Shown: positions 25,890 through 54,876 of the stretch, one piece after another
Position numbering within the stretch: the first letter of the stretch is position 1
Layout of the letters: each line of letters begins with the position of its first letter
Virus record (IMG/VR): IMGVR_UViG_3300042450_001700
Length of the DNA: 64,000 nt
From: an uncultured virus (IMG/VR IMGVR_UViG_3300042450_001700)
Lineage: Duplodnaviria > Heunggongvirae > Uroviricota > Caudoviricetes
Direction: 5' to 3' (one strand)
Notes under the pieces: generated by a model
The model's database searches: none
Seen by the model: only the letters and a program-made list of their open reading frames with translations
Told to the model about the DNA's origin: nothing
Program-made: the position numbers and the translations under genes

Positions 25890-26729
25890 ATGAGCAAACT
25901 TGTAGGGCTATCCCCATCCAGTGTTCAGCTATGGGAACAATGCCCACGCAAGTTCAAGGAAGAAAAGATGATGGGCCGATCAGGTGGCACAGGTGAAGCC
26001 GCGCTACTCGGCACGTTCGTCCATCTCGCACTCGAACATCTCATGCAACTACCAACCGAAGAACGAGTCATCGAAACAGCCCGCATGATCGCGCGTTCCT
26101 CGTGGGAAGAATTTGCTGCATCACGAGAATGGATCGGATGGGTTTCCGAAACAGGGTTTGATGATGAGCAAGCGTTTCGTCGTCGGGGCTGGGCAAGCAT
26201 CTGCGGCTATTTCCAAATGGAGAATCCGCAACAGGTTGAGGTTGTTGCAACCGAGCGTTTCATTTCGGCAACTCTTGAAGGTGTTCCTGTCAGGGGGATT
26301 GTTGACAGGCTTGATCGTGATGTGTTCGGCAATGTTGTGATCGTTGATTACAAGACAGGCAAGGTTCCATCCCCGTGGTTCCGCGCACCGAAGATGCAAC
26401 AACTCAACATCTATGCGGCGCTCGTTGAAGAGGTTGACGGGGTGCGACCTGATGAGGGCCGGTTGTTGTTCACTTCGTTCTCGGAGACTATTGCTACGGA
26501 TGTGACTGCGGAGTCTGTGTGGTCTGCGGTTGAGGTGTTGAAGAATGCGTGGGCGGCGATTGACCGGGCGGCGAACGATGATGTGTTCCCTGCGAAGGTT
26601 GGACCGTTGTGTGGTTGGTGTCCGTTTGTTGGTGAGTGTGTTGATGGGTTGGCTGAGGTGAAGTCTCGGCGGTCTGCGGGGAAGTTGAAGAAGACTGCTC
26701 CGGCTTGGGAGTTAGCGGCGGGCGAGTGA
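25890..26729 (+). CDS. PD-(D/E)XK RecB/Cas4-like exonuclease
   Basis: LSPSS...CP, GTFVH, RGIVDRLD, IVDYKTG, QLNIY and CGWCPF...C motifs; leaderless TAGACT-N6-ATG. Confidence 0.9.
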   Translation: MSKLVGLSPSSVQLWEQCPRKFKEEKMMGRSGGTGEAALLGTFVHLALEHLMQLPTEERVIETARMIARSSWEEFAASREWIGWVSETGFDDEQAFRRRGWASICGYFQMENPQQVEVVATERFISATLEGVPVRGIVDRLDRDVFGNVVIVDYKTGKVPSPWFRAPKMQQLNIYAALVEEVDGVRPDEGRLLFTSFSETIATDVTAESVWSAVEVLKNAWAAIDRAANDDVFPAKVGPLCGWCPFVGECVDGLAEVKSRRSAGKLKKTAPAWELAAGE

Positions 26730-26734
26730 CCCTG

Positions 26735-26800
26735 AAAAGGAATATCAAACAATCCGCTTTATTGAATTGACATGTGTAGTCGATGGGACTATCTTGATGG
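26735..26800 (+). promoter_or_regulatory. Class I promoter with operator
   Basis: TTGACA(26767)-N17-TATCTT(26790). Confidence 0.8.
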
Positions 26801-27197
26801 GGGTAAGGCAATACATCCGAAACGAACCGGCGCAACCGGGGGTCAAGGCGGGGGGACAACCGTAGCAAAAGGGTTCCAACAAGCACCAAGGTCAACGGCC
26901 CGCTAGTGGACATCAGACACTCAGCAGGGATACGGCAACGCATCCCCAACGCAAGCCAGCACGCATTAGCGGGAACACGAGTCTTGATGGCAGAAGCAAC
27001 GCACGAGCAATCTTGCATCGTTGAGAAACGAACAGACAAGAGGTTCAATCGTGACGTAAGAGCTACCGAAAGTAGTTCTGAATGTGAGGCGTGCCTGAGT
27101 TCGTGGATTGCGCATCTAGTAGCAAAAGCGCAGTAAGGGGTTTGGTGAATCAAACTTGTTGGAACCGGATTACGGTCCCCCCGCCCTTTTCGGTTTT
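26801..27197 (+). ncRNA. Structured ncRNA candidate B (~395 nt)
   Basis: Perfect long-range stems 26847-26857/27175-27185 and 26872-26883/27155-27166; many GNRA-type hairpins; U-rich 3' end. Confidence 0.75.
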
Positions 27198-27412
27198 TAC
27201 ACCGTCATCCGACGGGACTCCACCCGCACGCCCTGTTGCTCTGCGAAGACGCGTGCTTCACGCAGCGTGTAGAACACTGATTCTTCTCCGGCGGCAGTCA
27301 CGACGAACATCACTTTGGACCTAGCTACGCCACGCTCAAACGCCGCAGCCTGTAACTGGGTAGGCGCTGCCGTGGCTGTTGTACGTTTGGCTTTGCCGCA
27401 TCCGCATCCCAT
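27197..27412 (-). CDS. Small MGCGC-type protein
   Basis: MGCGCGKAKR...; ATG overlaps the upstream stop. Confidence 0.65.
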   Translation of the reverse strand: MGCGCGKAKRTTATAAPTQLQAAAFERGVARSKVMFVVTAAGEESVFYTLREARVFAEQQGVRVESRRMTV

Positions 27413-27648
27413 TAGGCGGGAACCTCGTCTGGTTCGGATCGTCCTTCGATGATCCAGCCCGGACCCTTCTGCCGTTGTGCGTACCAGCGGGCTTCGCGTA
27501 GTAGGTAGAACCGTACTGGTTCTAGTCCTGTGTGTTCTGGTGGGATTGCGTAGAACCAGACATGGGTTGGTTGGCCGGTGGTGGTTGGCGCTGATCTTGC
27601 TCCGCTGACTGGTGGGAGCCGTTTGTTCTTTCCGCAGTTGCAGGCCAT
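27412..27648 (-). CDS. Small MACNC-type protein
   Basis: MACNCGKNKR...FYLLREAR; paralog of the adjacent gene (FYTLREAR). Confidence 0.65.
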   Translation of the reverse strand: MACNCGKNKRLPPVSGARSAPTTTGQPTHVWFYAIPPEHTGLEPVRFYLLREARWYAQRQKGPGWIIEGRSEPDEVPA

Positions 27649-27807
27649 TGGGTGATGGTAGTTGGTGTCGGGTGTTGGGGGATAGCGTTGTCGGGTTTTG
27701 GGGGTCGAAAAGAAATCTGAAGAAATATCCTATTTGGACTTGCGGGCTGTAGTCGTATCGACTATCTTGATGGGGGTAAGGCAATTCACAACAAAGGAGC
27801 AAGGCAC

Positions 27808-28038
27808 ATGGGAATCGAAATCGAAGTACGGAACGGAATGGTCATCGAAGTTGATGAAGACTTCAACACAGAGTCCAATGACATAACCGTATGGGTGCTG
27901 GAAGTCGAAGTATTCGACCCTCAAGCGTCACCATGCTTTTCAAGCATCACCGAATACGGTGTCTTTGAGACATCCGCTGAGGCTGAGGCTGACGCACCTG
28001 AAGATGCGAAGCTTTACGAGGCGGAGGTGACAGCGTAA
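27808..28038 (+). CDS. Acidic hypothetical protein
   Basis: Class I promoter at 27740-27768, AAGGAG SD; paralog at 48690. Confidence 0.7.
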   Translation: MGIEIEVRNGMVIEVDEDFNTESNDITVWVLEVEVFDPQASPCFSSITEYGVFETSAEAEADAPEDAKLYEAEVTA

Positions 28039-28343
28039 TGGCAAAACACGCGGCACTCCCGATGAAGCCACTGTGGGACATCGCTCGCAGCATGAGTGAT
28101 GACCCGATGTTCAACCAGCGTGACTTCGCCCGAGCAGTCAACCATTCCACACGGGCCGTGACCCGTTGGATCACGGCAGGCGAAACCCTTTCGTGGGTGT
28201 CGGCAGACGAGGCGGCTATCGCACTCGGTTTGCATCCGATCCTTGTTTGGGGCGAAGCATGGTTGAACGTACGTGGCGAGTTGACTGATCTGGAAGCCGA
28301 AGTGATTGGCGATCTGGAAACGGAAGCACTCACCGATCTATAA
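28038..28343 (+). CDS. HTH-like DNA-binding protein
   Basis: NQRDFARAVNHSTRAVTRW...ADEAAIALGLHP..VWG pattern. Confidence 0.6.
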   Translation: MAKHAALPMKPLWDIARSMSDDPMFNQRDFARAVNHSTRAVTRWITAGETLSWVSADEAAIALGLHPILVWGEAWLNVRGELTDLEAEVIGDLETEALTDL

Positions 28344-28440
28344 ACAATCTGAGTTATAGGTGGTGTGGCGCTCAATAGTGTCACACCACCTAGATACACT
28401 TATCAAACAAGCAAGTCACAACTACCAAGGAGCGAGAGCA

Positions 28441-28671
28441 ATGGCAAAGAAGAAGGATTACCCGGCGATCAGCAAAGAGCAGAGGATCGAAGTCCTCTCG
28501 GTGTACCTCACCAAGATTGAATCAGGTCTTTCCGATCTGATCGCCAAGCGTGACAAGCTTCAAGACACCCCCGAGTCGGAATGGGCGCAACGCAACGTGC
28601 GAAACGCGACAGCACACATCGAAGTGACTCGCAACGAGCTTCACGCTCTCCTCGCAGAGGTGGCAGTCTGA
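28441..28671 (+). CDS. Hypothetical coiled-coil protein
   Basis: Class II promoter at 28379-28400, AAGGAG SD. Confidence 0.65.
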   Translation: MAKKKDYPAISKEQRIEVLSVYLTKIESGLSDLIAKRDKLQDTPESEWAQRNVRNATAHIEVTRNELHALLAEVAV

Positions 28672-29105
28672 TGGGGTCAGCAAACTTCCGCACAATCAAC
28701 ACAGGCGTGAACGCAGAAGCAGCATTCGATCAAGCCGTAGCTCAGGCATACGACGAGTACGGCTACGAGGGTTACACCGGCAGCATCGCTGAGAAAGACA
28801 GTTTCATAATCGTCCACCTCCCGCTCCACGCCGAAGCAGAACTGGTTGTAGGCGCTCTGGATCTCTCACAGTGCGCAGACTCCTACTACCCGACCGACAG
28901 AGAAGAAGCCGCTGCCGCCAAAACGTTACTCAACGCATACTTCGGTGAAAGCGACGCAGACCGGCTGATCGCCACCTACCTCAACAAGTGGGGACCGGCG
29001 CTCTGCTTCAAGCTTCGCCCACCCGAAATCGTCCAATGGGGCAGATACAACACGCTCCCAACTCACCAAGATGTGTTCTTGTTCGCAGGGTACGCATCCG
29101 AATGA
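28671..29105 (+). CDS. Conserved phage hypothetical protein
   Basis: MGSANF...AF..AV..A..EYG..GYTGSIAEK...KWGPA...FAGYASE. Confidence 0.75.
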   Translation: MGSANFRTINTGVNAEAAFDQAVAQAYDEYGYEGYTGSIAEKDSFIIVHLPLHAEAELVVGALDLSQCADSYYPTDREEAAAAKTLLNAYFGESDADRLIATYLNKWGPALCFKLRPPEIVQWGRYNTLPTHQDVFLFAGYASE

Positions 29106-29461
29106 ACCCACACACACTCGCCACCGGCAAAACCCCCGACCAAGCATTCAACAAAGCAACCCGCCAACCCGGAACCCACCTCACAAAAAAAGCGGGCTAC
29201 ACACACATCCCCCTCCCACCCAAAGTCATGGCACACAAAGTCCTAGCCGCCATCCAAGACACACAACACACAAACAACCCCAACGCAGACAACCGAGACA
29301 AACGAGCAGCCCAAAAAGCCGCCCAATGGCTCCAAACCCTCCCAACACCACCCCCACCCAACACCACCATCTGCCTACAACTAACAGGCCGACCCCTCAA
29401 CCAATACATCAACCAACACGGACCCCTCCCCAAAAACCACAACCTCTACATCTTCACCTAA
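29102..29461 (+). CDS. Diverged tandem paralog of the upstream gene, extremely C/A-skewed
   Basis: TGKTPDQAFNKA aligns with TGVNAEAAFDQA; ATGA-coupled. Confidence 0.55.
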   Translation: MNPHTLATGKTPDQAFNKATRQPGTHLTKKAGYTHIPLPPKVMAHKVLAAIQDTQHTNNPNADNRDKRAAQKAAQWLQTLPTPPPPNTTICLQLTGRPLNQYINQHGPLPKNHNLYIFT

Positions 29462-29632
29462 CCCCAAACCCAAACCCCCCCGAACAAACCCCACCCCCAA
29501 AACACAGGTCAGGAGTTTCAACCCACCACCTGTAGAAACATCGACTACAACAACATTTCGGATATACACAAACCGAACCACCCGGACTCAAAAAGAACCC
29601 ACAAAAAAAGATTGGGAGTTTCAAGTTGTCAA

Positions 29633-29822
29633 CTTTTCCAAAAAGTTATCCACAGGTTTTTCCACAGAGTTATCCACAGAACACCTGTTCGACGAACATT
29701 TGTTCGGAAAAGTTGTCCACAGGTTGTCCACAGGTTGTCCACAGCTTTATCCACAGAAAAGTTTTCCACAGGTTTTCCACAGGCAAAAGTTATCCACAGT
29801 TTGTCCACAGGTTTATCCCCAA
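29633..29822 (+). repeat. DnaA-box array with LexA-like boxes (left)
   Basis: TTATCCACA x4, TTGTCCACA x4 and TTTTCCACA x3, co-oriented at ~11-12 bp spacing; GAAC-N4-GTTC at 29679 and 29694. Confidence 0.85.
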
Positions 29823-29825
29823 CCT

Positions 29826-30602
29826 TGTTCGCTGTTCTCGGCTCGTGGTCGGCGCTCGTGGTCGGCTCTCGCTCTCTTGTTCTCGGCTCGTTCTCGGCTC
29901 TCGCTCTCGCTCTCATGTGGCTCTCATGTTGTGGCAATAGGTGAGACAGTAGGCGCGCGCTATCGGCTCTCTCTGTTCGCTCTCGTTCGTGTGGTCGGCG
30001 CGCTCTCGGCTCTCTCGTTCGTGCCGCTCGTGTTCGCTCTCGGCTCGTGGTCGGCTCTCTCTGTTCGTGGTTCGTTCGTGCCGCTCTCGCTCGTTCTCTT
30101 GGCTCGTGTTCGTGTGCGGCTCGTGGTCGGCTCTCTCTGTTCGTGGTTCGTTCGTGCCGCTCTCGCTCGTTCTCTTGGCTCGTGTTCGTGTGCCGCTCGT
30201 GGTCGGCTCTCGTGTTCGTGTGGCTCGTTCGCTCGTGTGGCTCGTGTGCCGCTCGTGTGGCTCTCTCTCGGCTCTCGTGTGCCGCTCTCGTGGCCCAGCA
30301 GCGCGTGCCGCTCTCGGCTCGTGGTTCGTGTGGCTCTCGTTCGTGTTCGTTCGCTCTCGTGGCTCTCGTGGCGCTCTCGTTCGTGGTCGGCGCTCATGGC
30401 TCTCTCGTGTGTTCTCTGTTCGCTCTCGGCTCTCGCTCTCGTGTGGCGCTCTCTCGCTCGTTCTCGTGGCTCGTGGTCGGCTCTCGTTGGCTCTCGCTCG
30501 TGGTGCCGCTCTCGTTCTCTCTCGTGGCTCGTGGCTCTCGCTCATGGCACTCACCCAGCAGCTCGTGCCGCTCGTGCCGCTCGTGCCGCTCGTTCTCGTT
30601 CT
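29826..30602. repeat. Adenine-free low-complexity tract 1
   Basis: Mosaic of GCTCTC/GCTCGTG/GTTC/GCC/GGTCG units. Confidence 0.9.
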
Positions 30603-30605
30603 CCC

Positions 30606-30646
30606 CAAAAACTAGAACGAGAGCCGACCGTTTTGGTCGGCTCTCG
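30606..30646 (-). terminator. Cassette terminator
   Basis: GAGAGCCGACC-AAAAC-GGTCGGCTCTC hairpin then GTTCTAGTTTTT; repeated at ~31641-31682, 32686-32728 and 33646-33684. Confidence 0.75.
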
Positions 30647-30657
30647 TTCTCGGCTCG

Positions 30658-30984
30658 TCAGTCCTTGAATATTGCTTTTAGCTCGGCAGTGATTGCCCGC
30701 TGAAGCGCTGGAATTTCGCGCACAAGAGCGTTGTACGTTTTCGGCTCAACCGCCAAAGTGTGAGTGCCAACACCTTGAGCGTTGAGAGTGCGAACCCACT
30801 TAGGCGTTCCGGCGTATCCTTCGTCAGTTGTGATGACTTTCGTGCCGTTCTCGTTGTAACCAACGAACACCCGGCGAGGATTTCCATGTACGTTGTTTGT
30901 TGTTGTGTAGTAGCCGATCGAACGGATGTTGAGCAGTAGCTCGTGTGCGGTCATTTGGTTGGCGAGTACTTCGTGGATTGCCAT
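30658..30984 (-). CDS. Cassette gene 1, hypothetical (108 aa)
   Basis: Normal-complexity ORF between the conserved leader and terminator. Confidence 0.75.
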   Translation of the reverse strand: MAIHEVLANQMTAHELLLNIRSIGYYTTTNNVHGNPRRVFVGYNENGTKVITTDEGYAGTPKWVRTLNAQGVGTHTLAVEPKTYNALVREIPALQRAITAELKAIFKD

Positions 30985-31172
30985 GATTTTTCTCTCATTC
31001 CCGAGCGGCTCGTGCCGCTCGTGTTGTTGGTGTGACTACATTCAACCAAAGATTGGAACAGAACGCAATAGCAAAACACCAGATTCTTTTTCTGACAGCG
31101 ATTTAGCCGCTAGAACTAGGGGGTTTTGCCCCAAAAGAAATATTTTGGAATCGCTCCAAAACGGTCGTTTTG
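30985..31172 (-). promoter_or_regulatory. Conserved ~185-bp cassette upstream block (4 copies)
   Basis: Homologous to 31961-32146, 33022-33208 and 33999-34180; includes TTGCGT, GTAGTCACACCAACAACACGAG and a hairpin before GAGAG. Confidence 0.75.
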
Positions 31173-31635
31173 GCGCTCTCGGCTCATGTTGCTCTCGGCT
31201 CTCGTGGTGCCGCTCATGTTGCTCTCGTGCCGCTCTCGCTCTCGGCTCTCGCTTGCCGCTCATGGCGCTCTCGTGTGGTCGGCGCTCGTGGCTCTCGGCT
31301 CGTGGTCGGCGCTCTCACCCAGCAGCGCTCTCGCGCGCTCTCGTGGCTCGTGGTCGGCGCTCGGCTCATGGTCGGCTCGTGCCGCTCTCACCCAGCGCTC
31401 GTGTGGCGCTCGTGTGGTGCCGCTCTCGGCTCGTTCTCTCTCGTGGTCGGCTCTCGTGCCGCTCGTGCCGCTCGTGGCGCTCTCGTGGCTCGTGGTGCCG
31501 CTCTCTCGGCTCTCGGCTCGTGTGCTTGCTCTCGCTCTCTCTCGTGCCGCTCTCGGCTCGTGTGGTGCCGCTCGTGGCTCATGCCGCTCTCGGCTCTCGC
31601 CCAGTCTTGTGTGGCGCTCGTGGCGCTCTCTCGTT
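31173..31635. repeat. Adenine-free low-complexity tract 2
   Basis: Same unit vocabulary as tract 1. Confidence 0.9.
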
Positions 31636-31693
31636 GGATCCAAAAACTAGAACGAGAGCCGACCGTTTTGGTCGGCTCTCGCTCTCGCTCGTT

Positions 31694-31960
31694 CTAGCCT
31701 AGTTGATCCTCTCGTTTTGGCAGTAGTTGGAGTTCTTCCCGATCTCCGGCGAGAGCGTCACAACATTCGCACAAGTTGCGGCTGAATGATCCCGAGAACC
31801 AATCCGAAGCCGGAACCAGATCAAAATCCTTGCTTAGTTCTTCGATCCCTTTTTGGCATGCAATCGAATCGGCTTCGCTCATTCCCGAGTCATCGCCATC
31901 AGCGATCATTTGGAGGCAGTTGAGGCAAACTCGGATGGTGATGATGTCTGACAGCTTCAT
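31694..31960 (-). CDS. Cassette gene 2, acidic Zn-binding-like (88 aa)
   Basis: VCLNC...FS...CECC...GDR motif. Confidence 0.75.
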   Translation of the reverse strand: MKLSDIITIRVCLNCLQMIADGDDSGMSEADSIACQKGIEELSKDFDLVPASDWFSGSFSRNLCECCDALAGDREELQLLPKREDQLG

Positions 31961-32146
31961 TTTTTTCTCTCATTCCCGAGCGGCTCGTGCCGCTCGTGTT
32001 GTTGGTGTGACTACATCAAAGCAAACATTTTGACTATACGCAATAGCAAAATGCGAGATTCTTTTTCTGACCGGGGTTTTGCCGCTAGTTCTAGGGGTTT
32101 TCACGCCAAAAGAAATATTTTGGAATACGTCCAAAACGGACGTTTT

Positions 32147-32685
32147 GCCGCTCTCGGCTCTCTTGTGCCGCTCGTGTTCTCGTGGTTCTCGCTCTCTCGT
32201 TCTCTCGGCTCGTGTGGCGCTCGTGTGGTCGGCTCATGGCGCTCTCGCTCGTGGTTCGTCCTAGTGCCGCTCTCGTGGCTCGTGGCGCTCGTGTGTGGCT
32301 CTCTCGTGGTTCTCGTGGCGCTCTCGTGTGGCGCTCGTTCTCATGCCGCTCTCGTGGCTCTCGTGTGGCTCGTGGTTCGTGCCGCTCGTGGTTCTCGGCT
32401 CTCACCCAGCAGCGCGCTCGTGTGGCTCGTGTGGTGCCGCTCGTGTTCGTTCGTGGTTCGTGGTCGGCGCTCGTGTTCTCTGTTCGCTCTCGTGGCTCGT
32501 GTGGCGCTCTCGTGGCGCTCATGGTGCCGCTCTCGTTCGTGGTCGGCTCATGTGGCTCTCTCGTGGCTCGTGGTTGCTCGTTCGTGGTTGCTCTCGGCTC
32601 ATGGCGCTCTCGTGTTCGTTCGTGCCGCTCTCGGCTCTCTCGTGGCTCTCACCCAGCGCTCGTGGTGCCGCTCTCGGCTCGTGCC
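32147..32685. repeat. Adenine-free low-complexity tract 3
   Basis: Same unit vocabulary. Confidence 0.9.
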
Positions 32686-32736
32686 AAAAACGGCAACAAG
32701 CGCCGACCGTTTTGGTCGGCGCTCGTTGCTCGTTTT

Positions 32737-33021
32737 CTAGAACGCTTGGAACAGAATCCCGTCGCAAAATTCGACTGCAAAAGTCATATCGTTGAGAGCG
32801 TCAAGCGAGTCGAAATTTTCGCCGTAGTTCTCGTTGATCTCTTCCAAGTCTGCCGCAAACATCCATTCTTGATCGAATGCGATTGGATCGAATTCAACCC
32901 CTTGGCCTTCTTCTTCTGCCGCTTCGATAAGCTCAAACAGTGCGTAGGATGCGTTGATCGGCCAGTTGCAAAGTGTGCGCATTGTTTGGGCAAACGTGCA
33001 GGCTGTCAGTAGTTCGTACAT
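32737..33021 (-). CDS. Cassette gene 3, very acidic protein (94 aa)
   Basis: SYALFELIE...EFDPIAFDQEW...LDALNDMT; D/E-rich. Confidence 0.75.
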   Translation of the reverse strand: MYELLTACTFAQTMRTLCNWPINASYALFELIEAAEEEGQGVEFDPIAFDQEWMFAADLEEINENYGENFDSLDALNDMTFAVEFCDGILFQAF

Positions 33022-33208
33022 TTTCTTTTCTCATTTCCCGAGCAGTTGGTGCCGCTCGTGTTGTTGGTGTGACTACATCAAAGCAAAGATTTGAAAGATA
33101 CGCAATAGCAAAACACGAGATTCTTTTTTCGACCGGGGTTTTCGCCCTAGAACTAGCGGGTTTTGCACCAAAAGAAATATTTTGGAATCGCTCCAAAACG
33201 GCAGTTTT

Positions 33209-33645
33209 CGCGCTCTCGCTCGTTCTCTCGTGTTGCTCGTTCTCGGCTCTCGGCTCATGGTTCTCTCGGCTCTCGTGTGGTGCCGCTCTCGCTCTCGGCT
33301 CTCGCTCTCGGCTCGTGTGCCGCTCTCGCCCAGCAGCGCGCTCGTGTGCCGCTCTCGTGTGGTTCGTGGTCGGCTCTCGGCTCTCGCTCATGGTTGCTCT
33401 CGTGTGCCGCTCGTGTTCGTGGCAGATACCCAGCGGCGCGTGCCGCTCTCGTGGCTCGTGTTTGCTCTCGGCTCATGCCGCTCTCGTGGTTGCTCTCTCG
33501 TGGCTCTCTCGGCTCGTGGTTGCTCTCTCGCTCGTGCCGCTCATGGTCGGCTCGTGGTGCCGCTCTCGGCTCTCGTGGTCGGCTCTCGTGCCGCTCTCGT
33601 TCTCGTGGCTCTCCCAGCCGCTCGTGGCGCTCGTGTGGCGCTCGC
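33209..33645. repeat. Adenine-free low-complexity tract 4
   Basis: Same unit vocabulary. Confidence 0.9.
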
Positions 33646-33698
33646 AAAAACGAGAATGAGCGCCGACCTTTTTGGTCGGCGCTCGTGGCTCGTGTGGT

Positions 33699-33998
33699 TC
33701 AGTCGTATTCAACCTCACCCCATTGATTTGTTCGTGAATGACAGAACTCTTCAACATAGTAAGAGTTGAGATCAACGTATTTTGGTGCCGCTTCAGCCGC
33801 TTCAGCCGCTTCAGCGATTTCCATGACTAGCGCCCTAGTCGAAACTGACGGAACCGATTTGCCGCCAGCGTTTTTGGCGATTTCAGTCCACTCAGAATCG
33901 GTCAAGTACTCGGGGTTTTTGCCGATAGTGGCGATTTCTGTCGCCATCTTCTTAGCAAGCTTTGCCCGATTTGCTAGGTGTGCCGGATGTGCTTTCAT
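33699..33998 (-). CDS. Cassette gene 4, HPxHL-family copy 3
   Basis: MKAHPAHLANR...W..IA..AG...PS..T. Confidence 0.75.
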   Translation of the reverse strand: MKAHPAHLANRAKLAKKMATEIATIGKNPEYLTDSEWTEIAKNAGGKSVPSVSTRALVMEIAEAAEAAEAAPKYVDLNSYYVEEFCHSRTNQWGEVEYD

Positions 33999-34180
33999 TC
34001 TGCTCTCTCTTCCCGAGCCGCTCGGCTCGTGTTGTTGGTGTGACTACATCAAAGCAAAGATTCCACACATAAGCAATAGCAAAATGCGAGATTCTTTTTG
34101 GAACAGCGGTTTTACCCCTAGAACTAGGGGGTTTTGCACCAAAAGAAATCTTTTGGAATCAGCCCAAAACGGTCGTTTTG

Positions 34181-34528
34181 GCTCTCGGCTCGCTCTCTCA
34201 TGGTCGGCTCTCGGCTCGTGTTCTCATGGCTCTCTCATGGCGCTCTCATGGTTCTCTCTCTCTTGTGCCGCTCTCGCTCTCTCATGCCGCTCTCGTGGTC
34301 GGCTCGTGGCTCGTGGCGCTCTCTCTTGCTCTCGGCTCTCGTGTGGCGCTCTCGTGGCTCGTGTGGTTGCTCTCTGTTCTCGTGGCGCTCTCTGTTCTCT
34401 CTCGGCTCGTGTTCTCTCTCTCATGGCGCGCTCGTTCTCGTGGTCGGCTCGTGGTCGGCTCGTGGTTGCTCTCGCTCTCTCGCTCTCGGCTCTCTCATGG
34501 TCGGCTCGTGTGGCGCTCTCGGCTCATG
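34181..34528. repeat. Adenine-free low-complexity tract 5
   Basis: Same unit vocabulary. Confidence 0.9.
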
Positions 34529-34614
34529 CAAAACATCTGCCGAACTCGTGACAGAAAACCGCCACTAGCGCGCGCGGTCGATTCCAAAACGACCAACACG
34601 AAAACGCCCGCGAG

Positions 34615-34846
34615 TTATCCCCAACCACACCAACCAGACGAGCCAAAAACAGCCAAAAGTTTTCCACAGGTTTTCCACAGGTTTTCCACAACTTTTTCCA
34701 CAGAACACCCGTTCCCCAAACGAATGTTCGATCAAAGTTATCCACAAGTTATCCACAGGTTTATCCACAGAACACCTGTTCGATCCGGTTATCCCCAGAG
34801 TTATCCACAGGTTTATCCACAGGTTTATCCACAGCCTGTGGATAAC
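34615..34846 (+). repeat. DnaA-box array with LexA-like boxes (right)
   Basis: TTATCCACA x6 plus one inverted copy (34837), TTTTCCACA x4; GAAC-N4-GTTC at 34703 and 34770. Confidence 0.85.
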
Positions 34847-35068
34847 CCAGCCCAGCCCAGCCCAGCCCCAAGCGGGCGGCGGCGGGCGGGCGGCAGCGGC
34901 GGCCCAGCCAGCGCGAGTTTTCCGGGCGGCGGGCGGCGGCGGCCAGCGCGAATTTCCGGGCGGGTGGGCGGCCCAGTCCGGCCCAGTCCGGCCCCGGATA
35001 AACGGCGGCCCAGCCAGCGCGAGTTTTCTAGGGGGCGGCGGGGCGGCGGGCCAGCGCGAATTTTCTAA
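34847..35068. repeat. GC-rich repeat block
   Basis: CCCAG tandem repeats, GGGC/GGC runs and four CCAGCGCGA(G/A)TTT units. Confidence 0.8.
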
Positions 35069-35074
35069 TTCGGA

Positions 35075-35461
35075 TTACCTATAAGGCGAAAGCGTCCCCG
35101 CAGCAGGAAACCCCCGTGATAACCACCCGCAAACCAAAAGCTCAATCGACGGGCGCACAACCAGAGCCGAAACCCCGGCAGCAGCCAGATCGTCTAGCCA
35201 TTCACGTTGTTCGACGGAAAGACGACCGACTTCCCGTTTGAGTTCAAGACATGCGAAACCGAAACGCGGGTGGACGAGCGCGAGGTCGGGGAACCCTTTA
35301 GCGTCTGCGTCACCGACGAAAACGCCTGCTGAGACTTGTCGTCGTGAATCGTGGAAGTGTGCGACACGCCATCCGTATAAACGGGCGAAAGTCATTATCC
35401 GGTTTTGTAGGTCTTTCTCGGTGATCTCTCGGAATGCTTTCTCTTCATTCGTAAGTCGCAT
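35075..35461 (-). CDS. VRR-NUC domain nuclease
   Basis: TEKDLQ, GFPDL, ELK...GRLS.EQ..WL motifs. Confidence 0.85.
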   Translation of the reverse strand: MRLTNEEKAFREITEKDLQNRIMTFARLYGWRVAHFHDSRRQVSAGVFVGDADAKGFPDLALVHPRFGFACLELKREVGRLSVEQREWLDDLAAAGVSALVVRPSIELLVCGWLSRGFPAAGTLSPYR

Positions 35462-35630
35462 TGTTATCCGTTCTGAACGCGTTGAAAGCCCCGAGGAGTG
35501 TTGCGAGTCCTCTGGTTTTGCAGATACCGCTTTTCACGATTCGTGGTCCACGCCAAACAACCCATACCCACTTTCGGTTGCTTCGCCGTTTCGTATCAAA
35601 CCAAATCCGATCAGTTGATGTATCTGTCAT
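35445..35630 (-). CDS. Hypothetical small protein
   Basis: Overlapping ORF within the operon. Confidence 0.45.
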   Translation of the reverse strand: MTDTSTDRIWFDTKRRSNRKWVWVVWRGPRIVKSGICKTRGLATLLGAFNAFRTDNNATYE

Positions 35631-35976
35631 TGCGTGAACCTAACTGTTCCCATTCTTCATCTCCTTCACGAACAACTAATACTTGACCAAACAGGTCACG
35701 AATCAGTTTTGGGTTGTCTTCGATGAACCCGTTTGACCAGTTACATGCAGGGATCAGGTTATTCGGGTTGATAAGGCTTCCACCTGCTGATCGTTTACGT
35801 CGTTCGTGTAAACCTTGGATTCCTGCGCATTGAGTTCGTATTGACTCGTCTTGTAACAGCGGGCAAATCAGGCAACCTATACCTGATTTGATTAGTGATT
35901 GGATAAGAGGAACCCTTGTTTCTTTCATCAGTGTTGAACGTTTTTCAGAACGTGGTCTGAGTTTGCGACCCTTCAT
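35611..35976 (-). CDS. HNH endonuclease-like protein
   Basis: CLIC, HERRKRSAGGS...NLIPACNWSN motif. Confidence 0.7.
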   Translation of the reverse strand: MKGRKLRPRSEKRSTLMKETRVPLIQSLIKSGIGCLICPLLQDESIRTQCAGIQGLHERRKRSAGGSLINPNNLIPACNWSNGFIEDNPKLIRDLFGQVLVVREGDEEWEQLGSRNDRYIN

Positions 35977-36070
35977 TGGCGACCGTTCATTGGCGACCGT
36001 CTAGGCTTGGCGACCGCCCATTGGCGACCGCCCAAGATTGGCGACCGATACCCCCTACTGGCGACCGATA
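35976..36070 (+). repeat. Six direct repeats of (T/C)TGGCGACCG
   Basis: Copies at 35976, 35990, 36007, 36021, 36038 and 36058. Confidence 0.85.
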
Positions 36071-36088
36071 CCGGTACAGCACATCTGC

Positions 36089-36316
36089 TCATTCGGCAGC
36101 GTCTTCCTCGTAGGCTAATAAGAGTATTTCTGATACCTGAACGGCAGTGAACGACACATTCATTACCCCACCAACTTTGCCCATCAGTTGCCCTTCGACC
36201 CCGTAAAGATTCGTTTGATTCAACGCAAGGATAACGCCATGCCCTTCGTTCTCTGCGTTTAGCAATGCCTCTTCAATCGTGTCAGGCGCTAACTTGAATT
36301 TGTTCTTCACGACCAA
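36089..36316 (-). CDS. Hypothetical protein
   Basis: AAGGAGG SD. Confidence 0.6.
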   Translation of the reverse strand: MVVKNKFKLAPDTIEEALLNAENEGHGVILALNQTNLYGVEGQLMGKVGGVMNVSFTAVQVSEILLLAYEEDAAE

Positions 36317-36368
36317 CCTCCTTGTTGTAGGAGATGCTACCTGTGGGGTTAGACCCGAATATGTCTAT

Positions 36369-36635
36369 ATGGGCAGTTATGGTTTACGGATGGATGAAGA
36401 ATCGTTTGACTACCCTGAAGACCCTTATCAGCTTGATGAGGTAGGTATAGGGACGGTTACGTCTTTAGAGGATGACGGGGTTGGAACCTACTTGTCTGTG
36501 TTGATTTCTGCGCATAACTCTTATGAGGGAGGTGCGTTCCACTTTGTTGTATCTCCTGAAGACGCGTTGAAGGTCGCCGCTTTGATTCTTGACTCTGTTG
36601 TGCTTATAAAGGCTTCTCTGACTGAGACTGAATAA
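36369..36635 (+). CDS. Acidic hypothetical protein (start 36369 or 36390)
   Basis: 3' part of tracked ORF 36279..36635. Confidence 0.55.
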   Translation: MGSYGLRMDEESFDYPEDPYQLDEVGIGTVTSLEDDGVGTYLSVLISAHNSYEGGAFHFVVSPEDALKVAALILDSVVLIKASLTETE

Positions 36636-37752: not shown

Positions 37753-38529
37753 TTACAACCCCAAAACCGTGTACTCAACCACACACTGACAATTCACTGA
37801 CTCAGCAGCAGGCAAAGCAATATCCCCCGGATACTCAGCAAAGAACCCACCAACAACAAACAACTCACCCGGACCCACCACCTGCCCATTAGCAGCAGCA
37901 TGAGACTCCCTACTATCCACCAACTGGCAAATCCAAACCTTCGACCCCTCAACACCAACAGCGATCAACTCATCAGGAATATCAACATCGTCCAACTCCG
38001 CCAACAAATCAAAAGCAGAACCAGCCGCAGCGTTCAACCCGCTGTTCGTTTCAGTAACAGTCATAACCCGTGCCACCCCCTGAGACAACGGTCCAGACAC
38101 ACCACCATCAAACAACCCCAGCCGGTCTAACAGCCAACCCGGAGCCTGACCAGATGCCTCCGTTGAAGCAACCGCAACCCGCCCATCAACAGTTGCGCCA
38201 ACCTTGTAAATCACAACCATCCGTGCAGCCAACATCTCCTCAGCCGCACTCTCCACAACATTAGAACGCAACAACCACACCAACCCCAAAGCAATCGCAG
38301 CATCACGAGCAATCTCCCGATACATCCGATCCAAAACAGGCTTCACTTCAGAATCAACAGCCTCAACCCACCAGCCCTGATCCCACAAGTCCTCATACAT
38401 CCCATCAGACTTCGTGACTCTCGCCCTCAACTTCGCTCTCACATCATCAAACGCAAAGCCAATAGCACGCCCAACCCTATAATTCCACAACGCACGGTCA
38501 GCATCAGATAACAGATACGACCCGGCCAT
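37753..38529 (-). CDS. MuF-like minor head protein
   Basis: TETN, KVW...SRESH...NGQ...F.VGG...YPGD...ESVNCQC motifs. Confidence 0.8.
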   Translation of the reverse strand: MAGSYLLSDADRALWNYRVGRAIGFAFDDVRAKLRARVTKSDGMYEDLWDQGWWVEAVDSEVKPVLDRMYREIARDAAIALGLVWLLRSNVVESAAEEMLAARMVVIYKVGATVDGRVAVASTEASGQAPGWLLDRLGLFDGGVSGPLSQGVARVMTVTETNSGLNAAAGSAFDLLAELDDVDIPDELIAVGVEGSKVWICQLVDSRESHAAANGQVVGPGELFVVGGFFAEYPGDIALPAAESVNCQCVVEYTVLGL

Positions 38530-39056
38530 CAGATAGATTCGATCTGTCTAAGGCGTGCATCTGCCCAAGTCTTACCCGGATCGCCACCCCACAACGCCCA
38601 AGCGATACGCCCAGCCGATGGGTAACCTTCTTCTCCACGACGGAACCCTTCAGCATCCTTATCAACCTCATGCCGAGCGAAGAACGATGCCATCCTGCGA
38701 ACAGTGTCAGGTGACAACCGAACCCTATTGGAAATATCGCGCGCTCGTGCAACACCAACCGCAGTGCCACCCCGCTTGAACTCAGCCCGCCAAGCCAAAC
38801 CCCTCTCAGCTTCAGCAACCATCGCGTCCGTAGGATTCAAGTCCAGATCAGCAAGCGAAACATAAGCAGCGAGCGCCGATAGCGCAGCGCCAGACAAACG
38901 GCCCTGAAGGTTTTCATTAGCGTGCAACGCAGCCACCTGAGCTAACGCATCACGCTTCGACCCATGACACGACAACAACCGACCTGTCTCTAAACGAACA
39001 CCCCACGGGGTAGATACCGGGCAACCCTGATCGTTACCAACAATATCCCAAGGCAT
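38529..39056 (-). CDS. Conserved phage head-associated hypothetical protein
   Basis: AERGLAWR..GGT.VG..RA...RMASFFARH...GYPSAGRIAWALWGGD motif common in phage head loci. Confidence 0.7.
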   Translation of the reverse strand: MPWDIVGNDQGCPVSTPWGVRLETGRLLSCHGSKRDALAQVAALHANENLQGRLSGAALSALAAYVSLADLDLNPTDAMVAEAERGLAWRAEFKRGGTAVGVARARDISNRVRLSPDTVRRMASFFARHEVDKDAEGFRRGEEGYPSAGRIAWALWGGDPGKTWADARLRQIESI

Positions 39057-39289
39057 CAGAAACTAAACATCCACTTCGCAACAGTCCACACCAACCACAC
39101 CGCAGGCATCAACATGGCTATAACAAACAACCATGTTGCGAAGACAGTGAAAAATGAGACAGCCATCTTCGCCCCAGCGGGGGTTTCCCTTTTCAGGGGG
39201 GAAGGCGTGGCAGCAGGAAAGCTTTCACCGGTCATCTCGTCAAATATCCTTGACTGTTGTTCATAGTCCCACTCTCGCCCATTACTCAT
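39056..39289 (-). CDS. Small membrane protein
   Basis: C-terminal hydrophobic segment. Confidence 0.6.
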   Translation of the reverse strand: MSNGREWDYEQQSRIFDEMTGESFPAATPSPLKRETPAGAKMAVSFFTVFATWLFVIAMLMPAVWLVWTVAKWMFSF

Positions 39290-52640: not shown

Positions 52641-53312
52641 TTGGAGGTTGTTGTGTCGAATGTTGTTCCGCAGTTGCAGGGGTTGTGTGTTCCTGTTGAG
52701 GGGTTGAGAACGATGACTGGTAATCCGCGTCGGGGTGATGTGGATGCGGTGATGCGTTCGTTGGATGCTTTTGGTCAGCGGAAACCGATTGTTGCTCGTG
52801 AGAGTACGGGCGAGGTGATCGCTGGGAACCATACGTTTATGGCGGCGGTGAAGTTGGGTTGGTCTGAGATTGCGGTTGTGTGGGTTGATGATGATGATGC
52901 GACGGCTAAGGCGTTTGCGTTGGCTGATAATCGGACTGCCGAGTTGGGTGGTTATGATGATGAGTTGTTGGCGGGGATGATCGCTGAGGTGATGTCTGCT
53001 GACTTGGGGTTGTTGGCTGCGGCTTCGTATACGGCTGACGATTTGGATGCGTTGTTGGCGGATACTTTGCCTGTTGAGGAGTTGCCGGTTCCTGAGACTC
53101 GTAAGGCCCCGGTGAAGTTGGCTGAACGGTTTGTTGGTTTGCCTGTGAGTGTGTTGAACAGTCGTGAGGGTTGGTGGCAGGATCGGAAACGGGCGTGGAC
53201 TGATCTTGGGATTGAGTCTGAGTTGGGTCGTGATGGTAAACCGTTGACTTGGAATGTTGCTGTGCCGCAGGGTCACGGCCATCAGGCGACGGATATGGTG
53301 CAAAATGGTTGA
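52641..53312 (+). CDS. ParB/Srx domain protein carrying the N-terminal segment of a DNA methyltransferase
   Basis: NPRRG...IAGNHT...LADNRTAE; ends with LAERF..P.SVL..R.GWWQDRKRAW..LGI.SELGR. Confidence 0.8.
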   Translation: MEVVVSNVVPQLQGLCVPVEGLRTMTGNPRRGDVDAVMRSLDAFGQRKPIVARESTGEVIAGNHTFMAAVKLGWSEIAVVWVDDDDATAKAFALADNRTAELGGYDDELLAGMIAEVMSADLGLLAAASYTADDLDALLADTLPVEELPVPETRKAPVKLAERFVGLPVSVLNSREGWWQDRKRAWTDLGIESELGRDGKPLTWNVAVPQGHGHQATDMVQNG

Positions 53313-54876
53313 ACCTGTTGTTGAGGTTGAGGGTTACGGTGAGGGTTCAACTTCTTTGTTTGACCCGGTTTTGTGTGAACTGGTTTATAGGTGGTTTTGT
53401 CCACCGGGCGGTCAGGTGTTGGACCCGTTCGCCGGGGGTTCTGTTCGTGGGGTTGTTGCGTCGAAGTTGGGTCGGGAGTACACGGGGATTGACGTTCGCC
53501 CGGAGCAGGTTGAGGCGAACAGGTTGCAGGGTGAAAGGCTTTGCCGCGGGTTGTCGTTTGTGCCGGATGTCCCTGAGGATCACATGCCTGAGCTGACACC
53601 GGTTGAAACTCATGGTGACATCTGGTTGAAACGTGAGGATCATTATGTTTTTGGTGGGGTGAGGGGTGCGAAAGTTCGGACTTGTATGCTTCTGGTTGAG
53701 CGTGCGCGTGAACAAGGGGTTGGGGTTGTCACGGCTGGGTCACGGCAGTCGCCGCAGGTGAACTTTGTGGCTCAGATTGCAGCGGCGTTGGGTGTGAAGT
53801 GTCGGGCGCATGTGCCTTCTGGCGATTTGACACCGGAGCTTCTTGCGGCTCGTGGCGCTGGTTGCGAGTTGATTCAACATCAGGCGGGGTATAACACGGT
53901 GATCGTTGCGCGTGCGCGTGAGGATGCGTTGCAGTCTGGTTGGGTTGAGATTCCGTATGGGATGGAAGCGCCGGAGGCGGTTGAGTTTACGAAACCGCAG
54001 GTTGCGAATATCCCTGACGGGGTTCAGCGGATTGTGAACAGTGTCGGGTCAGGAATGACTCTTGCGGGCATCCTGTGGGGTCTAGTTGAGTCGGGGAGGG
54101 ATATTCCGGTAGTTGGTGTGTGTGTCGGTCATCCGCCGTTAGAACGCCTTGAGAGGCACGCACCACCGGGTTGGCAGGAAATGGTGACGATTGTGGACCA
54201 CCCGTCCGATTACCACGACGAGGCAGCGGTGACTGTGTTCCGTGGGGTGCAGTTGGACCCGTGGTACGAGGCGAAGTGCATTCCGACTTTGGAACCGGGT
54301 GACTTGTTATGGGTGAGCGCTATCCGACCGTCAGTTGTTCTCGCCGCAGCACCGTTACCCCAGTGGGTTGAGGGTGACGCTTCAGAGGTGGGCGAGTTGT
54401 GTCAAGGTTTAGAAGCCGATTTGTGGTTTTCTTGTCCGCCTTATGGTGATCTTGAAGTGTACTCGGATGATCCGCGTGATCTTTCAACGATGGATTACTC
54501 AACTTTTATTGAGTCATTCCGACAGATTGTTGATACGTCAACAAAACTGTTGAAGGACGACAGGTTCGCTGTTGTTGTTGTCGGTGACTTCCGTGGCCCC
54601 GACGGGAACTACCGCAACTTTGTTTCAGATACGATCAGCGCTTTCCAAGACGCAGGACTCAGCTTGTATAACGAGGCGATCCTTGTAACGAATCTTGCTT
54701 CACTGATTCTGCGTGTCGGTAAACAGTTTGATGTGTCCCGCAAGATGGGCAAGTCGCATCAGAATGTTCTTGTGTTCTTGAAGGGTGACGCACGCGCAGC
54801 GACACGCGCTTGCGGTCCGGTGCAGGCCGGTGATCTGACGGCTGAGGCCACGGAAAGCGTCCAACCGGAATCGTAG
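53305..54876 (+). CDS. DNA methyltransferase with inserted PLP-dependent (fold type II) domain
   Basis: TSLFDPVLCE...VLDPFAGGSVRG; insert LTPVE...LKRED...GAKVR...VGSGMTLAGI...DPWYEAK; then FSCPPY...K.HQNVLVF.KG. Confidence 0.85.
   Translation: MVEPVVEVEGYGEGSTSLFDPVLCELVYRWFCPPGGQVLDPFAGGSVRGVVASKLGREYTGIDVRPEQVEANRLQGERLCRGLSFVPDVPEDHMPELTPVETHGDIWLKREDHYVFGGVRGAKVRTCMLLVERAREQGVGVVTAGSRQSPQVNFVAQIAAALGVKCRAHVPSGDLTPELLAARGAGCELIQHQAGYNTVIVARAREDALQSGWVEIPYGMEAPEAVEFTKPQVANIPDGVQRIVNSVGSGMTLAGILWGLVESGRDIPVVGVCVGHPPLERLERHAPPGWQEMVTIVDHPSDYHDEAAVTVFRGVQLDPWYEAKCIPTLEPGDLLWVSAIRPSVVLAAAPLPQWVEGDASEVGELCQGLEADLWFSCPPYGDLEVYSDDPRDLSTMDYSTFIESFRQIVDTSTKLLKDDRFAVVVVGDFRGPDGNYRNFVSDTISAFQDAGLSLYNEAILVTNLASLILRVGKQFDVSRKMGKSHQNVLVFLKGDARAATRACGPVQAGDLTAEATESVQPES

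Follow-up and report, generated by a model that had tools for sequence, protein, structure and literature searches.

The 64,000-nt DNA stretch of the uncultured virus IMGVR_UViG_3300042450_001700 (hereafter the window, meaning the whole stretch at its full length) contains a locus at positions 29826..34528 in which small genes alternate with DNA written almost entirely in three letters. The A-poor DNA of this locus consists of five non-coding tracts of 353–779 bp and not of one tract, and its polarity is strict: the T-free strand is the gene-sense strand in all five. We tentatively regard these tracts as polar, signal-free spacers or insulators within an array of gene cassettes that resembles the PeSL promoter-terminator arrays of T4-type phages, an explanation to which we give somewhat less than an even chance. 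The locus as a whole is best read as an array of autonomous cassettes around genes that are found almost nowhere else.

Numbered along the plus strand, tract 1 (29826..30604, 779 nt), tract 2 (31166..31636, 471 nt), tract 3 (32147..32688, 542 nt), tract 4 (33202..33645, 444 nt) and tract 5 (34176..34528, 353 nt) have A contents of 2.3, 2.3, 2.6, 2.7 and 2.3%, respectively. Tract 1 includes a 35-nt A-containing island (29926–29960) and a 76-nt tandem duplication. Without this island the tracts comprise 2,554 nt (C 887, T 826, G 786 and A 55), so that about 2.55 kb of DNA with 2.15% A stands against 24.4% in the remaining window, and the A-depleted strand reported in the initial annotation is borne out. 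Outside 29000–35500, each base makes up at least 9.4% of every 350-nt segment. The longest stretches of tract without A measure 334, 186, 147, 138 and 109 nt, whereas elsewhere runs without any one base do not exceed 74 nt, and those of 60–74 nt sit in the flanks of the same locus. The initial annotation had placed the A-poor DNA at 29826..34528 as one stretch. The position was correct, whereas the continuity was not, because four gene cassettes interrupt the tracts. The latter make up 55% of the 4,703-nt locus (54% when the island of tract 1 is left out), with 25% gene and 20% other control DNA. What surrounds the tracts had been missed: the genes and their terminators, the repeated upstream elements and the arrays of DnaA boxes.

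Most of the remaining A residues (45 of 55) belong either to CTCATG, which accounts for 25, or to a C(A)CCCAGC(AGC) motif, which accounts for 20, in agreement with the earlier remark that A is largely confined to CTCATG and CCCAGC. The tracts had also been described as something other than a simple tandem repeat, and this description holds. Tandem Repeats Finder returned 50 overlapping rows for 29500–35200, and the arrays inside the tracts are short and imperfect, with periods of 7–89 nt and mostly 2–5 copies; the largest is a 76-nt unit in 2.6 copies. No single unit found by this program spans a tract, and the tracts are neither micro- nor minisatellites. Splitting the text at GCTC gives 103 distinct units in 208, the commonest being GCTCTCG (27) and GCTCTC (17). 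Runs of four or more A/T letters are found at 1.5 per kb in the tracts versus 13.2 per kb elsewhere.

The tracts are present in independent samples and in close relatives. Assembled metagenome contigs, rather than raw reads, from 4 of the 24 listed runs were aligned to the window, and the contigs of three independent lake-water DNA runs (X3, X9 and X16) cover the tracts with no differing letter in the listed pieces. Among 17 loci around relatives of the DnaB-like helicase encoded in the window, tracts are found in five, all on IMG/VR contigs of the same architecture, of which two belong to the lineage of the window and three to a second lineage with about 85% DNA identity. An assembly artefact is ruled out by these two sets of contigs.

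A coding function of the tracts was also ruled out. Letter identity in the tracts is 0.268 at lag 3 versus 0.413 at lag 2, the period-3 spectral power is at chance level (z −0.3 to 1.0), and only 3 of the 16 indels between the lineages are multiples of 3. Open reading frames that cross the tracts carry no weight, because a stop codon cannot be written without T and A together.

Four minus-strand cassettes alternate with the five tracts. In the gene direction, the repeating unit consists of a terminator, a T-free tract, a conserved upstream/leader element and a small gene, and tract 1 is the last tract, reaching from the final terminator to a DnaA-box array. A hairpin with a T-run immediately precedes each of the five tracts in this direction (four strong and one weak). 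The four strong hairpins, one after each small gene, are predicted to act as intrinsic terminators. Those of gene 1 (30614..30650; stem of 16 pairs, loop of 5 nt, run of five T), gene 2 (31649..31685; 16 pairs, five T), gene 3 (32693..32729; 16 pairs, five T) and gene 4 (33658..33684; 11 pairs) all lie on the minus strand, as does a weak terminator-like hairpin of 6 pairs (34536..34555) directly upstream of tract 5. The upstream/leader elements form a repeat family of four minus-strand copies (30985..31165, 31961..32146, 33022..33201 and 33999..34175), which are 75–86% identical over 199 nt. Common to them are a pair of CCAAAA..TTTTGG palindromes, a 26-mer that is invariant, a leader hairpin of 8 pairs and, ahead of the start codon, a purine-rich stretch for ribosome binding. 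Neither the terminator family nor the upstream-element family has a further copy in the window.

The upstream element probably carries the promoter of each cassette. Its four copies share no conserved TANNNT hexamer on the gene strand, and no promoter-like site was found in any of them; the sole such site in 29000–35500 falls inside gene 3. A non-canonical promoter in the upstream element is possible. Promoters of canonical type (TTGACA or TTGCGG, 17 nt, TATCTT) lie at 26767–26795 and 27739–27767, both directed rightward and each with a TAGTCG..CGACTA-type palindrome across the spacer followed by a common GATGGGGGTAAGGCAAT leader, in contrast to the cassette elements with their lack of a canonical −10 hexamer.

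The four small genes are located on the minus strand at 30658..30984 (gene 1; 108 aa, pI 9.05), 31694..31960 (gene 2; 88 aa, six Cys, pI 4.12), 32737..33021 (gene 3; 94 aa, acidic, pI 4.05) and 33699..33998 (gene 4; 99 aa). They show no similarity to one another, belong to no Pfam family and have no tblastn match among 50,697 phage records. Comparison with PHROG gave only two weak hits of unknown function (E 7.5e-5 and 2e-4), and the ESM Atlas provided no useful lead to their function. A search of 5.8 billion proteins yielded only two clusters for gene 1, and no viral contig was found on which its relative P0002 (72% identical) could be placed. Between the window and the second lineage, 32 of the 36 differences in gene 1 are at third codon positions, and genes 1, 3 and 4 together differ at 81 of 304 third positions versus 27 of 608 first and second positions. 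By this excess, the small genes are real genes under purifying selection.

In the explanation that we prefer, the tracts are signal-free by virtue of their composition. Where one strand has T and lacks A, neither strand can hold a TANNNT −10 hexamer. Since the gene-sense strand is T-free, RNA of a tract in the gene direction would lack U, and start codons, stop codons and terminators with a U-run would thus all be missing from it. Read-through of a terminator into a tract would stay untranslatable, and each tract would keep the control region of a gene 0.35–0.8 kb from the end of the previous gene. The tracts lengthen and shorten through local duplications of 9–116 nt, and a polymer of one hairpin arm would stay three-lettered and one-stranded; probably only such a one-arm polymer persists, as joining both arms into a polymer would create a giant palindrome. 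The initial annotation had offered a polar binding or translocation track, a nuclease-attenuating signal and a restriction-site-poor spacer, and of these the spacer fits best: the tracts are non-coding and contain no signal that needs A and T on one strand. The insulating role of the tracts is inferred, and so is any transcription of them.

Several observations weigh against this explanation. The only contigs from an RNA library (run X23, described below) come from a relative in a soil run and give no proof of transcription, and the copies of the upstream element share no conserved canonical −10 hexamer, so that independent transcription of each cassette is putative. The RNA of known rut regions is untranslated, has little structure and is much richer in C than in G. 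The gene-direction RNA of the tracts would be untranslatable and, in tract 2, less structured than that of the other strand, but with 31% C and 35% G and without U it would make an atypical loading zone for Rho. Spacers of 0.35–0.8 kb far exceed the needs of known promoter-terminator cassettes. A mere spacer would be expected to drift freely among C, G and T, whereas the divergence of the tracts is much lower than that of third codon positions nearby (see below). Finally, relatives whose DnaB is 89–92% identical show no tracts in their available fragments.

The vocabulary of the tracts points to their origin. GTGCCGCTC is present in 36 copies and GGTCGGC in 24, where an order-2 model predicts 0.8 and, for GGTCGGC, the expectation is 0.3. 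Such counts of long words indicate higher-order structure. The 8-mers from about 210 nt of A-free hairpin arms cover 78% of the tract bases, as compared with 87% for real tract pieces, 41% for reversed arms and 34 ± 12% for texts of order-1 composition. By these figures, the tract words are the A-free arms of the terminator and leader hairpins of the locus itself. The longest exact words common to different tracts are 19–27 nt (mean 21.8), and random texts of order 3 or order 4 give 19.9–22.1. Therefore, the tracts are independent texts in one vocabulary and not recent copies of one another; selection neither for nor against long repeats between tracts was seen.

The tracts change mainly by duplication and deletion. 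The nearest record, the 25.6-kb fragment G001, matches 21,015 nt of the window with no mismatch and one gap, and this sole difference over 21 kb is one 76-nt tandem copy in tract 1 (30119–30194). Tract indels in the second lineage range from 1 to 116 nt (9–116 nt in tract 3) and include an apparent 116-nt tandem copy in tract 3, and 16 indels versus 74 substitutions separate tracts 2–5 of the two lineages. Toggling between CTCATG and CTCGTG accounts for 12 of the 74 substitutions, so that the A residues of CTCATG look like recent G-to-A changes; unlike CTCATG, the CCCAGC motif is conserved. G/A changes (17) are as frequent as C/T changes (18), and new A residues therefore do not seem to be strongly purged at this depth.

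These patterns raise the possibility that the tracts are functionless, runaway "cryptically simple" DNA built from hairpin-arm words by slippage and local duplication and tolerated by the phage. Cryptically simple sequence was reportedly described by Tautz and co-workers in 1986 as scrambled, over-represented short motifs arising from slippage and local duplication. The words of the tracts are likewise scrambled and over-represented, with copy numbers that vary between near-identical genomes. The ratio of indels to substitutions in tracts 2–5, the tandem copies of 76 and 116 nt, the patchwork of short arrays and the fact that the tracts are as unlike one another as random texts of one vocabulary are all consistent with neutral expansion. 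So is the distribution of the architecture, which is confined to two or three close lineages (the five IMG/VR contigs and one metagenome contig) and is not seen in the available parts of the relatives with 89–92% identical DnaB. In contrast to cryptically simple DNA, the tracts are kept at fixed positions after terminator T-runs and show low point divergence. A tract is retained at all four comparable positions (tracts 2–5), and tract 1 is partly represented in the second lineage. The lengths are similar, with net indels that add about 7% to tract 2, 8% to tract 4, 1% to tract 5 and 40% to tract 3. Point divergence is about sixfold below that of neighbouring third codon positions, and 2.55 kb of ballast, 54% of the locus, would be carried by an otherwise densely coding phage. 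We consider this explanation clearly improbable.

The searches for relatives covered several collections. Five further loci with enough downstream DNA, in which DnaB is 47–92% identical, have no tracts and a different gene order. Searches of the whole records of five relatives, all of them fragments, found no tract and, in one of them, a four-box DnaA array. Two motif scans of IMG/VR returned only the same five contigs. A motif scan of metagenomes gave 22 loci, of which 21 are chance matches and one (L055) is a relative on a short contig that represents a third variant. Megablast and blastn searches of INPHARED gave no match for the tracts.

The comparison of sequences concerns two to three close lineages. 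Tracts 2–5 are 94–97% identical between the window and the second lineage (96.2% for tract 2), and 74 of 1,789 aligned sites differ (4.1%) versus 26.6% of third codon positions nearby. Genes 1, 3 and 4 are 86–90% identical and gene 2 is 66% identical. Tract 3 is 95–96% identical in all three pairs of the three lineages, and the adjoining gene 2 is 66–88% identical. This low divergence suggests a constraint on the exact sequence of the tracts, with the caveat that the two lineages are mosaic (72–100% identity per 200 nt over 16 kb) and that gene 2 has recombined.

If the sequence is constrained, a bolder proposal can be made, which is possible but in our judgement doubtful. The tracts would then form a new class of strand-polar "one-armed hairpin polymers", sequence-constrained and placed after every terminator, in which the alphabet itself is selected. 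They would serve either as a directional insulator (a sink for read-through that is U-free, untranslatable and proof against promoters, possibly with R-loops or Rho loading) or as a track for a protein on one strand, in conjunction with the origin-like region of DnaA boxes and iteron-like repeats.

DnaA-box arrays flank the locus on both sides. The left array (29646..29809, plus strand) has 11 DnaA-box-like 9-mers TT[A/T/G]TCCACA with GAACA..TGTTC palindromes between the boxes, and the right array (34660..34845, plus strand) has another 11, of which 10 are on the plus strand and the last is inverted. All 22 matches of the window lie in these two arrays, 21 of them on the plus strand, and 2.08 matches would be expected by chance in the whole window. 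The boxes are spaced by 11–12 nt in both arrays. An identical triple box with equal spacing is found in genomes of several phyla, once at bases 78–110 of a complete chromosome, and this recurrence fits genuine DnaA boxes. The relative G003 has instead a four-box array beside an HTH-type replication gene. To the right of the right array, just downstream of the VRR-NUC gene, about five iteron-like repeats of 35–37 nt (34887..35065, plus strand) occupy a T-poor, G+C-rich stretch with the core ..CCAGCGCGA[G/A]TTT.., and their CCAGCGCG-type core is similar to the A-containing motif found within the tracts. Taken jointly, these repeats and the DnaA boxes look like a replication origin.

Two further features were noted around the arrays. 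Between the last rightward gene and the left DnaA array, 515 nt (29106–29620) consist of nearly only A and C on the plus strand (A 37.7%, C 42.1%, G 11.1% and T 9.1%) and are crossed by long plus-strand frames; this stretch could encode a low-complexity protein tail or be a C-rich, G-poor region of the Rho-loading type for the rightward operon. One X16 contig joins the left and right arrays and skips 5,137 nt. This joint was considered as an "empty site" and set aside as too weak, since it has 20 letters on its shorter side and 17 unmatched letters between.

The arrays are one reason to consider the tracts as a sequence-specific, strand-polar platform for a protein, which might come from the phage or from the host and be linked to the DnaA arrays and the iteron-like repeats. 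On this view, the entire 5 kb would form a single nucleoprotein domain, such as an extended origin, a sink for DnaA or a domain of silencing. The bracketing of the locus by all DnaA-box matches, 21 of them co-oriented, would suit such a domain, as would the low divergence of the tracts relative to third codon positions and the steadiness of tract 3 in three lineages. The conserved C(A)CCCAGC(AGC)GC motif, which resembles the iteron-like core, is embedded 10 times in the tracts, and GCTC, G and C show a modest periodicity at 10.0 and 11.5 nt (z 3.3–4.9 against order-3 Markov texts). However, there is no peak at the helical repeat of 10.5 nt (z −1.8), and no single repeated site was found, as words shared between tracts are no longer than those of random texts. 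GCTC is not protected either: it covers 34% of the sites and contains 27 of the 74 substitutions. The mosaic genome could account for the low divergence, and no candidate binding protein was identified. We regard a protein platform as unlikely, though not negligibly so.

The tracts might instead act as RNA, in one of two ways: an A-free plus-sense RNA would be an antisense or sponge against the 5′ arms of the hairpins in the cassette mRNAs, or a U-free minus-sense read-through RNA would form R-loops near the origin-like region. The tract words complement the A-containing arms of the hairpins, the excess of GTGCCGCTC given above being an example, and the tracts are better conserved than the neighbouring genes. 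Stability is highest in hybrids between purine-rich RNA and pyrimidine-rich DNA and lowest for rU:dA pairs, which counts for the R-loop option. A further, weak hint comes from X23, a soil oligo-dT RNA run with 5% of the words. Seven of its contigs, 90–99% alike and derived from a relative, cover parts of tract 1, tract 2 with its terminator, and the right DnaA array with the repeats beyond, and none of the four genes. Contigs of an RNA library can derive from DNA, and contig ends follow repeats; these contigs show neither transcription nor its strand.

Other results speak against a functional RNA. No promoter was found that points into a tract, and hairpin and T-rich sites flank each cassette in both directions; the tracts therefore look shielded from transcription. 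The predicted fold energies of tract 2 RNA are unremarkable, at −145 kcal/mol for the minus strand (z −2.1) and −186 kcal/mol for the plus strand (z −0.55) relative to shuffled sequences. A search of 26500–36500 with Rfam 15 gave only three chance-level matches (E 0.21–0.75, 19–26 bits versus gathering scores of 53–80) and hence no family near threshold, and no tRNAs were found. On balance, a role of the tracts as RNA seems distinctly unlikely.

The same calculations qualify the initial statement that the near-absence of one base suppresses hairpins and most palindromes. It is only partly true for hairpins, since tract 2 RNA folds about as well as shuffled sequences on both strands. As for palindromes, the density of four-letter ones is not reduced (32 per kb in the tracts versus 39 elsewhere), but their kinds are indeed restricted, to GCGC (45), CATG (25) and CGCG (9).

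The recurrence of GCTCGTGG, one mismatch away from the Chi sequence of E. coli, was confirmed, with 29 copies in the tracts, all on the plus strand. The tracts could accordingly be dense arrays of Chi-like octamers that tame a host nuclease of the RecBCD or AddAB type, and genes for a PD-(D/E)XK nuclease and a VRR-NUC nuclease are located nearby. However, order-3 Markov texts of the tracts give 26 ± 5 copies, so that the count is one of tract word statistics. The octamer is not over-represented genome-wide, with three copies on the plus strand and one on the minus strand in the 58.5 kb outside the locus, and the tracts contain no copy of the E. coli Chi. The nuclease-attenuating reading of the initial annotation is thus not supported, and we give it the faintest chance of all. 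We know of no Chi sequence described for actinobacteria; the Chi considered here is that of E. coli.

Arrays of small genes with repeated control DNA are known from other phages. In the hyperplastic regions of T4-type phages, PeSL motifs, which are small composite promoter-terminator motifs with sigma-70 consensus promoters, flank small genes that lack known homologs and bring about the exchange of these genes (Arbiol et al. 2010, PMC2839356; Comeau et al. 2014, PMC4122927). The present locus is similar in that each repeated module joins a stem-loop terminator to the control DNA of the gene that follows, and in that unrelated small genes lie between the copies and are mosaic among close relatives. 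It differs in the size of the module (0.6–1 kb, of which 353–779 nt are three-letter tract without a PeSL counterpart), in its lack of a detectable canonical −10 hexamer or sigma-70-consensus promoter, and in its probable host, an actinobacterium and not a Gram-negative bacterium.

By this precedent (PMC2839356, PMC4122927), the tracts themselves might be homology linkers for the swap, duplication and loss of cassettes. The unrelated genes between homologous intergenic modules would fit this role, as would the mosaic gene 2, whose alleles are 66% identical between lineages with flanks at 96–100% and which has a recombinant allele in L055. However, the tracts share only words of 19–27 nt, as expected by chance, whereas the upstream elements share 25–55 nt and the terminators up to 42 nt; the elements and terminators, and not the tracts, would therefore be better sites for crossover. 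In addition, the same four genes are in the same order in both lineages. We consider this role very improbable for the tracts.

A second comparison can be made with the first-step-transfer region of phage T5. This region, in a terminal repeat of the genome end that is first to enter the cell, has large untranslated repeats that are better conserved than the small genes nearby, two DnaA-box clusters and a hypothesised function (Davison 2020, 10.1101/866236). The resemblance lies in the large untranslated DNA that is better conserved than the surrounding small genes and in the two separated DnaA-box clusters. The repeats of T5 are four-letter palindromes, inverted repeats and direct repeats with eight boxes in inverted pairs, whereas here 22 boxes in two direct arrays accompany a one-stranded three-letter text.

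Three-letter DNA is familiar from the laboratory. Synthetic G-less and U-less cassettes for in-vitro transcription are three-letter templates whose transcripts lack one nucleotide. As laboratory constructs, they say nothing about a natural role of the tracts. In the literature searched, we found no description of phage tracts without one base or of strand-asymmetric intergenic DNA. Thus the three-letter tracts have no counterpart in the literature or in the collections searched with this vocabulary. Within the PeSL-like cassette array, the three-letter tracts after the terminators are the new part.

The source of the window appears, from its genes and its occurrence in samples, to be an uncultured lake-water actinophage. 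According to PHROGs and Pfam, the window encodes a major head protein, portal proteins, the large terminase, minor tail proteins and an endolysin-type peptidase, as well as a DnaB-like helicase and PD-(D/E)XK, VRR-NUC and HNH nucleases, and outside the tract locus it is densely coding. In tblastn, the portal protein matched 877 phage records, nearly all of actinophages (496 of Mycobacterium, 198 of Gordonia and 131 of Microbacterium). No phage record is close to the window at the DNA level, and no match of the terminase exceeds about 27% identity. The window is represented in lake-water metagenomes, with at least half of its sampled words present in 22 of the 24 listed runs, two of which are flagged as possible sources.

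A few observations concern other parts of the window. A 540-aa protein encoded at 53254–54876 fuses a fragment of N6_N4_Mtase (residues 46–88) to a PALP pyridoxal-phosphate enzyme domain (119–314), and a glycosyltransferase is encoded at 1314–2258; the two may hint at modification of DNA bases. The segments matching 38554–39063 and 37765–38533 are swapped in order in the second lineage (window 38533–39063 compared with L018, L019 and L032), which appears to be a local rearrangement in a head-morphogenesis-like gene region. At 35960–36070, between the HNH gene and the next gene, tandem TTGGCGACCG-type repeats differ in copy number in the second lineage.

The locus thus presents 2.55 kb of DNA without a possible promoter, start codon or stop codon that is steadier than the adjacent genes, which points either to an undescribed function or to a fast build-up of junk DNA, even in a phage. 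A role in protein binding or as RNA would make the tracts a new regulatory element beside a region that binds the DnaA of the host. If the tracts insulate, as we tentatively prefer, they would be natural orientation-dependent genetic insulators that would be useful in synthetic biology, and the idea of mobile promoter-terminator cassettes would extend from T4-type phages to actinophages.

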